Virus record (IMG/VR): IMGVR_UViG_2531839374_000008
From: a virus
Lineage: Duplodnaviria; Heunggongvirae; Uroviricota; Caudoviricetes
Strand: one strand, 5' to 3'
DNA: 4,658 nt
The position numbers and the translations under genes were made by a program. The notes beneath the pieces were generated by a model. It saw only the letters and a program-made list of their open reading frames with translations, made no database searches and had not been told where the DNA came from. This document shows, one piece after another, positions 1,329-4,658 of the stretch; within the stretch, counting starts at the first letter, position 1; every line of letters begins with the position of its first letter.

Positions 1329-1334
1329 AAGGAG
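1329..1334 (+). promoter_or_regulatory. Shine-Dalgarno (AAGGAG) for the 1341 CDS
   Basis: Perfect AAGGAG with a 6-nt spacer to ATG 1341. Confidence 0.6.
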
Positions 1335-1340
1335 AAAAAC

Positions 1341-1538
1341 ATGATTACCAGTTATGAAGCCACTGTTGTAACTACTGATGACATTGTTCACGAGGTTAAT
1401 CTGGAAGGAAAGCGTATTGGCTACGTGATTAAGACAGAAAATAAAGAAACCCCATTCACTGTGGTTGATATCGACGGTCCATCAGGCAACGTTAAAACAC
1501 TTAACGATGGTGTAAAAAAATGTGTCTGGTGCACATAG
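1341..1538 (+). CDS. small hypothetical protein (65 aa as encoded; may be ~91 aa if the frame break at A7 1514-1520 is repaired, ending at TGA 1613-1615)
   Basis: Strong RBS. Product MITSYEATVVTTDDIVHEVNLEGKRIGYVIKTENKETPFTVVDIDGPSGNVKTLNDGVKKCVWCT, stop TAG 1536-1538. Directly after the A7 run the -1 frame reads a clean, helix-like continuation (MCLVHIGKNLPAEKKAEFLATLIAMKLKGEI). Family not recognised. Confidence 0.6.
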   Translation: MITSYEATVVTTDDIVHEVNLEGKRIGYVIKTENKETPFTVVDIDGPSGNVKTLNDGVKKCVWCT

Positions 1539-1613
1539 GAAAGAATCTGCCCGCAGAAAAAAAAGCCGAATTTCTGGCAACTCTGATTGCAATGAAATTA
1601 AAAGGTGAAATCT

Positions 1614-1644
1614 GAAAAAAAGAAAGCCTGCACACTGTGCAGGC
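1614..1644 (-). terminator. putative rho-independent terminator oriented for the minus strand (possibly bidirectional)
   Basis: Perfect palindrome GCCTGCACA-C-TGTGCAGGC (1626-1644) immediately preceded on the + strand by an A-rich run (1614-1625, AAAAAAAGAAA), which gives a hairpin plus U-tract when read on the minus strand. There is no T-tract after the hairpin on the + strand. Confidence 0.3.
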
Positions 1645-1714
1645 CTGAGTGAAGAACCTGGGACATTTATTCATCACTCGCAGTAATTTTAATCTGAGTT
1701 GAGGTTAAAAAACA

Positions 1715-3517
1715 ATGAACACCGATAAACAAGTTTACCCACTGTATTACGAAGCAAAAAATGACAAAGTAAGAAAACGTCTCGGTATTAAAGGCGGTTT
1801 TTACTGGGCTGAAGCGAAAAAATTATCCATTGCCATCTCCCGTGGTGCTGTTGCGATTGACGATGCTGGATACGATGAAGATGACTTCAAAAAACCTGTT
1901 CGCGTCAATTTGCCCGTTGTTGATGACCTCCCACCAGAAGGCGTGTTTGATACGGAATTCTGCAACCGTTACGAAAAAGGCGGGGAAGATGGCATCACAA
2001 TGGTATTTATCGCGCCCTCACCCTCTGCGCAGGACAAACCAGCCAGCACTGACAATACCAATGTTAATGGCGAAGACATGACGGAGATTGAGGAGAATAT
2101 GCTACTCCCGATTTCTGGTCAGGAGCTGCCCATTCGCTGGCTTGCTCAACACGGCAGCGAAAAACCGGTAACGCACGTTTCACGCGACGAACTCCAGGCA
2201 TTACACATTGCACGGGCTGAGGAACTACCAGCTGTTACTGCCCTGGCTGTTTCGCATAAAACCAGCCTGCTCGACCCGCTGGAAATTCGCGATCTCCACA
2301 AACTCGTGCGTGATACTGACAAAGTTTTCCCTAATCCTGGCAATTCAAATCTGGGACTGATGACTGCTTTTTTCGAAGCATATCTGGATGCCAACTACAC
2401 CGATCGCGGTCTGCTGACAAAAGAGTGGATGAAAGGAAATCGTGTTTCACGCATCACGCGCACGGCTTCCGGTGCGAATGCTGGCGGCGGGAACCTCACC
2501 GATCGCGGCGAAGGTTTCGTCCACGATCTGACGTCGCTGGCGCGCGACGTAGCCACTGGCGTACTGGCCCGTTCAATGGACGTGGATATTTATAACCTTC
2601 ATCCGGCACACGCTAAACGTGTCGAGGAAATTATCGCTGAAAATAAACCGCCCTTTTCTGTTTTCCGCGACAAATTCATCACCATGCCTGGCGGGATGGA
2701 TTATTCCCGCGCCATCGTGGTTGCGTCAGTGAAAGAAGCACCGATTGGTATCGAGGTCATCCCCGCGCACGTCACTGAATATCTGAACAAGGTACTGACT
2801 GAAACCGATCATGCCAACCCTGATCCGGAAATCGTGGATATTGCCTGCGGTCGCTCCTCTGCCCCGATGCCGCAACGTGTAACAGAAGAAGGAAAACAGG
2901 ATGATGAAGAAAAACCGCAACCATCTTGCGCAATGGCAGATGAACAGGCAACGGCTGAAACAGTGGAACCGGATGCAACTGAACATCATCAGGACACGCA
3001 GCCGCTGGATGCTCAGTCACAGGTAAATGCTGTTGATGCGAAATATCAGAAACTGCGGACAGAACTCCATGAAGCCCGGAAAAACATTCCGCCCAAAAAT
3101 CCTGTCGATGCAGACAAATTACTGGCTGCCTCTCGCGGAGAATTTGTTGAAGGGATTAGCGACCCGAATGATTCGAAATGGATTCCCGGTCATCATATCT
3201 CCTCAAATGAAGTCAAAAAAACGGAAAATGAAGTGCGACAGACTGAAGATAAACAGCACCAGAACAGCGAACCGGAGGAGGGAACACCCTGCAATCAGAC
3301 TGGCGAGGATAACTGCCCTGACTGTGGCGCGGTGATGGGAGACGCAACTTATCAGGAAACTTTTGACGAAAAAAACCAGATGAAGCACAGGAAGAAGAGC
3401 CGAAGAAAACGGAAAAAGCTGATGATTTGTTGCCGGAGAACGCTGGCAGCGATCAGCATAATGATAGCAATAATGAAACTGGCGAAGATGAACTCAACTG
3501 GAAAAAACAGGTGTTGA
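1715..3517 (+). CDS. large hypothetical protein (600 codons as encoded), family not recognised; the 3' end appears frame-disrupted
   Basis: Uninterrupted 1803-nt ORF from ATG 1715 (GAGG at 1701-1704). The first ~380 aa look globular, followed by a long acidic low-complexity region rich in E/D/Q/T/P (from about nt 2870). After the A7 run at 3369-3375 the in-frame tail becomes implausible ([12 protein letters not shown]... then stop 3515-3517) while the -1 frame continues the acidic character. No Walker A, DDE, HTH or other motif I can confidently name. Confidence 0.8.
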
Positions 3518-3668
3518 TTGCGGCGGTTTACGGTTTATGTGCGAATCCTGCGTGCATAGCCTATGCGCCTGCAATCCCTGGCATCGCAATGATGATTGCC
3601 AACAAGCTTGAAAATTTTGGAGTGACCAGTGATGAGCGCTTACCCGATTTTTTGATCGTATTGAAGAA

Positions 3669-3929
3669 ATGGCATGGGCTCGTCACTACCAGCAGATCGT
3701 TCGTGAAGAAAAAGAAACGGAACTGGCGGACGATCTGGAAAAAGGTCTGCCTCAGCACCTGTTTGAATCGCTCTGCATCGACCATTTGCAACGCCACGGT
3801 GCCAATAAACAGGCAATCAGCCACGCATTTGATGATGATGTTGAGTTTCAGGAGCGCATGGCAGAACACATCCGGTACATGGCTGAAACCATTGCCCACC
3901 ACCAGGTTGATATTGATTTGGAGGACTAA
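3669..3929 (+). CDS. 86-aa ORF; either an independent small gene or the C-terminal segment of the frame-disrupted large gene
   Basis: ATG 3669 to TAA 3927-3929: [86 protein letters not shown]. Helical, charged and protein-like. The frame is open upstream to 3636 and there is only a weak SD (GAAGAA) before the ATG. Confidence 0.45.
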
Positions 3930-3976
3930 AATCTATGGCGCTTTTTCAACGAGCAATAAACACACAGGCCTATCTA

Positions 3977-4012
3977 TGAAGTGGCACACTGAATTTGGCC
4001 ACCTGAACAGAG
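3977..4012 (+). repeat. left terminal inverted repeat (IRL) of the IS911-like element, about 36 bp
   Basis: Terminal TGAAGTGG... lies 72 bp upstream of the orfA start. The length is taken from what is known of IS911 (about 36-bp IRs). The inner boundary is approximate. Confidence 0.55.
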
Positions 4013-4048
4013 GTGATATGCTCACCTCAGAACAACACAGGTGCTCCA

Positions 4049-4658
<610 letters not shown>

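Follow-up and report, generated by a model that had tools for sequence, protein, structure and literature searches.

The stretch analysed here, 4,658 nucleotides of a Caudoviricetes record of IMG/VR (IMGVR_UViG_2531839374_000008; hereafter the window), carries between 1341 and 1615 two reading frames that meet at a run of seven A residues (Table 1). The good ribosome-binding site that an earlier note had claimed for the gene starting at 1341 is present. Codons 1 to 60 of this gene are authentic RacC sequence and are followed by five out-of-frame codons (CVWCT) and a TAG stop located 15 nt downstream of the run; the description of the stop as just after A7 in the earlier text therefore stands, and the title of that text, which had put the stop inside the run, does not. 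The second frame is an ORF of 31 codons at 1520-1615 in the -1 frame (MCLVHIGKNLPAEKKAEFLATLIAMKLKGEI), the ATG of which spans 1520-1522, confirming that one extra A would fuse both ORFs into a product of 91 aa. The junction of full-length RacC reads ...TLNDGVKKMCLVHIGK, as opposed to ...GVKKCVWCT in the truncated protein.

The tail ends as had been stated, at a TGA followed by a further A7 tract and a palindrome. Read on the minus strand, the segment 1615-1646 consists of a 10-bp hairpin and then TCTTTTTTT, the pattern of an intrinsic terminator. The hairpin folds at -16.7 kcal/mol (z -2.35), and the palindrome with its A7 tract is the sole terminator-like site within 1150-1800. The plus strand has no T-run behind the hairpin. 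A possible role of this putative terminator is to keep antisense transcription coming from the recE side out of racC. K-12 carries a different hairpin at the position of this palindrome. A second homopolymer run, A8, lies inside the racC tail; it had been overlooked in the earlier note, and in relatives frameshifts are as frequent there as at the first run.

The neighbouring genes fit an early-left operon of the Rac or Qin type. At its left end, the window starts with the 3' end of an IS3-family element (C-terminus of orfB, stop at 541-543), at which a Rha/Ash-type gene (Phage_pRha, Phage_ASH) is cut at about position 589, leaving only its last ~90 codons, to 868. The dicB gene has an extra A at 978 compared to a close Shigella relative (L010, DicB of 62 aa), which shortens the product to 42 aa; the remaining DicB sequence (...ERELLNKICIVSMLARLRLMPKGCAQ) lies in an ORF at 922-1068. 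A frameshift at the A-run 3369-3375 (A7 versus A8 in the relative L003) leaves the recE-like gene with 600 instead of 646 aa, and the Pfam scan of this gene returned Exonuc_VIII only, with no match to DUF3799. A further difference, A6 versus A7, is seen at 3501 in comparison with L010. In the start region of gam, T6 instead of T5 at 3648 shifts the first ~12 codons, and the product has 86 aa as against 98 aa in relatives. The indels at 978, 3368 or 3501, and 3648 are private to the window and may reflect either additional decay or a less accurate sequence. As a whole, the window is a prophage remnant in an advanced state of decay, whose IS elements and other frameshifts point to ordinary pseudogene decay.

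Table 1. Features of the racC locus and its surroundings, in window coordinates
Feature	Position	Strand	Remarks
IS3-family end	1-589
DicB	879-1007
DUF1482 protein	1011-1256
Shine-Dalgarno AAGGAG	1329-1334	+	6 nt ahead of ATG 1341; identical in K-12 and O121 (alignment)
5' part of racC (ORF)	1341-1538	+	65 aa ending ...GVKKCVWCT; TAG 1536-1538
A7 run, frameshift site with net loss of one base	1514-1520	+	read from sequence
3' part of racC (RacC codons 61-91)	1521-1615	+	-1 frame; stop TGA 1613-1615
Second homopolymer run, A8 (GAA AAA AAA G)	1557-1564	+	inside racC tail; intact in window
A7 run	1615-1621		directly at racC TGA, ahead of palindrome
Palindrome, 10-bp stem	1624-1646	-	between racC and recE-like gene
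recE-like gene	1715-3517	+	Pfam Exonuc_VIII (PF06630), E 1.4e-37; 600 aa
Gam	3669-3929		86 aa from ATG 3669
IS3-family end	3976-4658

Identity of the gene and its homologues

Joined at the run, the two ORFs of the window are homologous to RacC of E. coli K-12 over its whole length, with 88 of 91 residues identical. Residues 1-60 account for all three differences (57/60 identical), while the tail matches residues 61-91 of K-12 RacC perfectly (31/31), its DNA showing 4 synonymous and 0 nonsynonymous differences. The match to the RacC C-terminus rules out that the tail is a chance ORF. The best protein match is named 'protein RacC' (E 1e-49), and K-12, BL21 and other strains carry the annotation 'racC: protein RacC'. 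In the Rac prophage of K-12 MG1655, racC is a single ORF of 276 nt flanked by ydaE and recE. K-12 RacC (UniRef label RACC_ECOLI, 91 aa) and the 65-aa product of the window share one cluster at 90% identity; Pfam scans of the 65-aa and the joined 91-aa products returned no family. Of 5426 complete E. coli genomes, 1806 contain the DNA of the region, nearly always on the chromosome. The phage collection contributed six Rac-like records, in keeping with a prophage assignment, and a plasmid gene was ruled out, as the plasmid collection gave a single near-full match, in a megabase-sized record. Together these comparisons establish the identity of the gene: judged from its sequence, the locus 1341-1615 is racC of a Rac-type lambdoid prophage, broken by the loss of one base. 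Since a 65-aa ORF and a stranded 31-codon tail take the place of an intact single ORF of ~91 codons, the window copy is a pseudogene allele of the RacC family and not a separate family.

We aligned homologues to determine which length is normal, as the earlier note had proposed, and found that the intact ones (from K-12, O55:H7 and divergent relatives) encode ~91 aa (91-93) in one frame. All nine intact CDSs checked are single ORFs, colinear over 91 codons. None of them ends at the CVWCT terminus, and the tail, for which the alternative would have been a lack of conservation, is conserved in 9/9. Of the three frames of the tail, the RacC frame alone lacks stop codons in all nine. The run itself is missing from five of the nine; at its position, divergent intact homologues have AGA AAT CTT, AGA GCA ATG or AAA GCA ATA/ATG/ACA. 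Across divergent pairs, the pN/pS ratio of the tail was 0.58 in the RacC frame versus 0.69 and 0.96 in the other frames, a modest contrast; the frame kept open in nine homologues and the four synonymous, zero nonsynonymous changes relative to K-12 speak more clearly. The family is tiny: a profile search of 1.84 billion protein representatives returned 19 matches. Just three of these cover the profile from end to end and have no N-terminal extension (P0047, P0144, P0145); they are 91-93 aa long. Three long matches, with 8-11 matched stretches, look spurious. Of the two possibilities left by the earlier note, a frameshifted gene or two overlapping products of one locus, the single 91-aa frame of the homologues and the one-A difference from an in-frame Shigella copy support the former, and the lack of run conservation and of RNA structure, together with the 'frameshifted' pseudogene annotation of A9 alleles in relatives (see below), argues against the latter.

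Gene order supports the same assignment. The Exonuc_VIII gene of the window begins 100 nt past the racC stop, placing racC directly upstream of a recE-like gene, and the racC-recE order is also found in K-12 and at seven other loci. The exception is the most divergent homologue (L017), where racC is followed by an integrase gene.

Run-length alleles and the origin of the lesion

The sequence at the run differs between relatives, with alleles in frame, one nucleotide short and one nucleotide long (Table 2). Over the shared stretch compared, the sole difference between the window and a second Shigella copy of racC is one A. Because this second copy has an in-frame A8, the window A7 and E. coli O121 A9, the one-nucleotide event is established as a contraction, and the window allele is, as read from the aligned alleles, A8 contracted to A7.

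Table 2. Sequence of the first racC run in the window and in relatives
Source	Sequence at the run	Frame
K-12	GTC AAA AAA ATG	in frame
O55:H7 CB9615 and strain M8	GTT AAA AAA ATG	in frame
Second Shigella copy (L027-L029), kilR-ydaE-racC context	GT-A8-TG	in frame
Window and 10 fetched Shigella loci encoding the 65-aa product	GT-A7-TG	-1 nt
E. coli O121 201805972 and VL7S7	GT-A9-TG	+1 nt
O157:H- 493/89 and 2013C-4974	GTT-A8	+1 nt

The simplest history takes two steps, a synonymous change followed by a loss in one lineage (A7) and a gain in another (A9). A change of the valine codon from GTC/GTT to GTA would have joined its A to AAA AAA A, creating a pure A8. Replication slippage would then have removed one A to give A7, and in another lineage the A8 would have expanded to A9. 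Translation from ATG 1341 leaves the RacC frame after Lys60, reads CVWCT and stops at TAG 1536, with the real last 31 codons stranded in the -1 frame. We infer the order of the mutations (GTT to GTA and then A8 to A7, or a direct loss of the T) from extant alleles only. Independent +1 alleles occur in O121, VL7S7, O157:H- 493/89 and 2013C-4974. We fetched the PGAP annotation for three of these (O121 201805972, O157:H- 493/89 and 2013C-4974), all of which PGAP marks as 'frameshifted'.

The second Shigella copy, although in frame at the run, is itself broken: racC is interrupted after codon 82, where GGTAATGCTGCCAACTTACTGATTTAGTGTATGATGGTG follows, with a DDE_Tnp_IS1 gene downstream. The insertion is taken to be IS1-like on the strength of these sequences. 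With the A7 allele, this means that Shigella assemblies hold at least two inactivated racC alleles.

The A7 allele is widespread. In the assembly collection, 115 blocks and 82 contigs contain the exact 65-aa product; the sources are NCBI, ENA and Logan records and include multi-megabase contigs from at least ten assemblies. Every named source is Shigella, among them Shigella flexneri 1485-80 and S. dysenteriae CDC 74-1112, and the fetched loci differ in their IS context, two of them having ipaH-like genes nearby. The presence of this product on 82 contigs across sources demonstrates that the allele is inherited and is not a read error; it appears fixed in Shigella prophage remnants, in which IS elements and further frameshifts abound. 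Counting exact matches in the complete E. coli genomes, a procedure that misses alleles with SNPs in the flanking sequence, gave no A7, no pure A8 and two exact A9 alleles. One Shigella copy has a Pro-to-Leu change. Decay of the Shigella tails cannot serve as a formal test for a relaxation of selection, since the loci had been chosen for an exactly identical 65-aa product and are identical upstream by construction.

Taking these data together, we conclude with a probability of about 0.93 that 1341-1615 is an inherited pseudogene allele in Shigella that arose by ordinary decay, and not a dual-coding locus.

Consequences of the truncation and alternative readings

In the screen reported by Bobonis et al. 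(bioRxiv 10.1101/2020.06.22.160242), the retron-Sen2 toxin RcaT was blocked most strongly by the 91-aa RacC of K-12, which is reported to act on the RcaT of retron-Eco9 as well. According to the same authors, racC and recE make up a pair of blocker and trigger: RecE activates the toxin by degrading msDNA, and RacC is presumed to bind RcaT directly (bioRxiv 10.1101/2020.06.22.160242). Newer literature on the mechanism of RacC yielded nothing beyond this preprint and reviews. We modeled an intact homologue with 95% identity by AlphaFold2, using an alignment of 20 sequences (mean pLDDT 78, pTM 0.62). The predicted fold consists of a five-strand sheet (strands within residues 5-51) and two helices at residues 54-69 and 72-87, in agreement with the helical character that the earlier note had ascribed to the tail. 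The frameshift after Lys60 removes most of the first predicted helix and all of the second and keeps the predicted N-terminal beta-sheet. This makes a loss of function likely, and the 65-aa product is most likely inactive, as far as the predicted structure can tell. The loss of racC in the window coincides with a broken recE-like neighbour. We speculate that, if the missing DUF3799 domain is the toxin-triggering nuclease, selection for keeping the blocker might have been relaxed.

It is possible that the A7 allele still leaks a small, unprogrammed amount of 91-aa RacC, by -1 slippage of the ribosome or by an extra A added by RNA polymerase. If so, 'pseudogene' may not mean zero function. The further proposal that the Shigella A7 allele still makes some RacC and that an anti-retron gene is tuned by mutation at its two A-runs seems to us quite improbable.

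We consider it very improbable that the run is a site of programmed recoding, at which a -1 ribosomal frameshift or transcriptional slippage would produce the 65-aa and 91-aa proteins in a set ratio. The run does have the form of a slippery heptamer X_XXY_YYZ: in GT A_AAA_AAA TG, read as GTA AAA AAA with codon boundaries at 1515 and 1518, the heptamer is in register with the zero frame, and a -1 shift gives ...GVKK-MCLVH..., the native RacC sequence. Moreover, Shigella is known to use transcriptional slippage in mxiE (PMC1088944). Against this, the run is unconserved and the divergent intact homologues have a single 91-codon ORF; among the nine intact homologues, the combination of slippery site and two-ORF layout is not conserved, and most E. 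coli copies require no shift. Stimulatory elements could not be discerned either: the 80 nt past the run (1521-1600) fold at -12.3 kcal/mol compared to a mean of -14 for shuffled sequences (z +0.61), that is, no better than these, and the 10-14 nt upstream of the run contain no SD-like motif as read from the sequence. In E. coli, A_AAA_AAA is far less shift-prone than A_AAA_AAG (PMC5009743). With seven A, the run is also below the length for frequent slippage of RNA polymerase in most bacteria (~9 or more A/T), and selection against slippage-prone runs in bacteria is typically visible only from ~9 nt (PMC1088944). Finally, the A9 (+1) allele on the same sequence background is unexplained by a programmed -1 site. 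These comparisons demonstrate the absence of conserved recoding signals and, given the unconserved run, programmed recoding appears strongly disfavoured.

Both runs break repeatedly among relatives. Many RacC variants in the protein database are shifted at one or the other and end in ...GVKKCVWCT (65 aa), ...GVKKNVSGAHRKESARRKKSRISGNSDCNEIKR (89 aa), ...AEKKSRISGNSDCNEIKR (88-89 aa) or ...EKKPNFWQL (81-82 aa). Those ending in ...AEKKSRISGNSDCNEIKR or ...EKKPNFWQL mark the second run, at 1557-1564, as a frameshift hot spot in relatives. Some of the Shigella copies have A in place of G at 1565, so that the uninterrupted A run of the stranded tail reaches 9 or 10. Compensated double shifts restore ...EFLATLIAMKLKGEI in P0042, P0044, P0064 and P0032. 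For P0042 (L026, 1001-1276) this can be followed at the DNA level, with A8 at the first run and A7 at the second: the 91 codons are kept and ~14 codons between the runs are read in another frame. These alleles suggest that the sequence of the linker between the runs is replaceable, the frame of the C-terminal helix being restored.

Such variation could be read as that of a contingency locus, in which the two A-runs act as a reversible ON/OFF switch (phase variation) of an anti-defence gene. Close relatives are indeed polymorphic in run length on nearly identical sequence (A7 in the window and 10 Shigella loci, A8 in L027-L029, A9 in O121 and VL7S7), frameshifts recur at both runs, and the four compensated alleles regain the C-terminal frame. 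However, the states look fixed by lineage, all 10 of the 10 fetched Shigella copies encoding the 65-aa product being A7, and the commonest alleles break the run with C or T. Furthermore, the surrounding prophage is decaying generally, and 7-9 A make a short run by the standards of classical phase variation. A switch function is in our view highly improbable. An assembly or sequencing artefact, by which a genuine A8 was miscalled as A7, is barely credible: the window does have other private 1-nt differences from its closest relatives in short runs (978, 3368 or 3501, 3648), as homopolymer errors would produce, but the identical 65-aa product, hence A7, recurs on the 82 contigs from NCBI, ENA and Logan, and the 10 Shigella loci carry A7 in different IS contexts.

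Under the preferred reading, an inherited pseudogene allele, the correct annotation of 1341-1538 together with 1520-1615 is one frameshifted racC pseudogene, not two genes or a recoding site. The significance of this result is small beyond annotation. The repeated breakage of the two poly-A runs of racC in natural Escherichia and Shigella prophages does, in addition, provide a small natural data set on where RacC, a reported phage-encoded blocker of the retron toxin RcaT, can vary: in these alleles, the segment between the runs tolerates change and the frame of the C-terminal helix is restored.

Comparison with known systems

The closest known counterpart is K-12 racC, which has the same Shine-Dalgarno sequence, the same start and the same place directly upstream of a gene matching Exonuc_VIII. 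The window differs from it by one base fewer at the run, resulting in 65 instead of 91 aa. It also differs in the upstream neighbours, which are dicB and the DUF1482 gene in the window and kilR and ydaE in K-12, and in the recE-like gene, which has an Exonuc_VIII match only and is followed by gam, whereas full-length RecE (L019, L021) has DUF3799. The pseudogene alleles of O121, O157:H- and 2013C-4974 affect the same gene and the same homopolymer run. They have one extra A, which leads into the third frame and to an 89-aa product ending in ...NVSGAHRKESARRKKSRISGNSDCNEIKR, whereas the window has one A fewer. The gene and this kind of homopolymer frameshift are thus already known, and the alleles of related genomes are flagged as pseudogenes.

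The IS element at the right end of the window itself contains a recoding site with which the racC run can be contrasted. It has A_AAA_AAG in register at 4300-4306, a stop of orfA at 4351 and orfB from 4378 in the -1 frame, which is the classical layout of programmed -1 frameshifting in IS3-family transposases; its OrfA presumably resembles that of IS911. The racC run shares with the A_AAA_AAG sites of IS3-family transposases and dnaX a heptamer of lysine codons in zero-frame register. It differs from them in being A_AAA_AAA, which is less shifty, in having no downstream structure and in being unconserved. A resemblance also exists to the genes rescued by transcriptional slippage (Baranov et al., 2005; PMC1088944), in which the ORF is likewise broken, an A-run lies at the frame transition and an extra A in the mRNA restores the product. 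That survey dealt with A or T tracts of 9 nt, and in a few species of 8, as compared to the 7 of the racC run.
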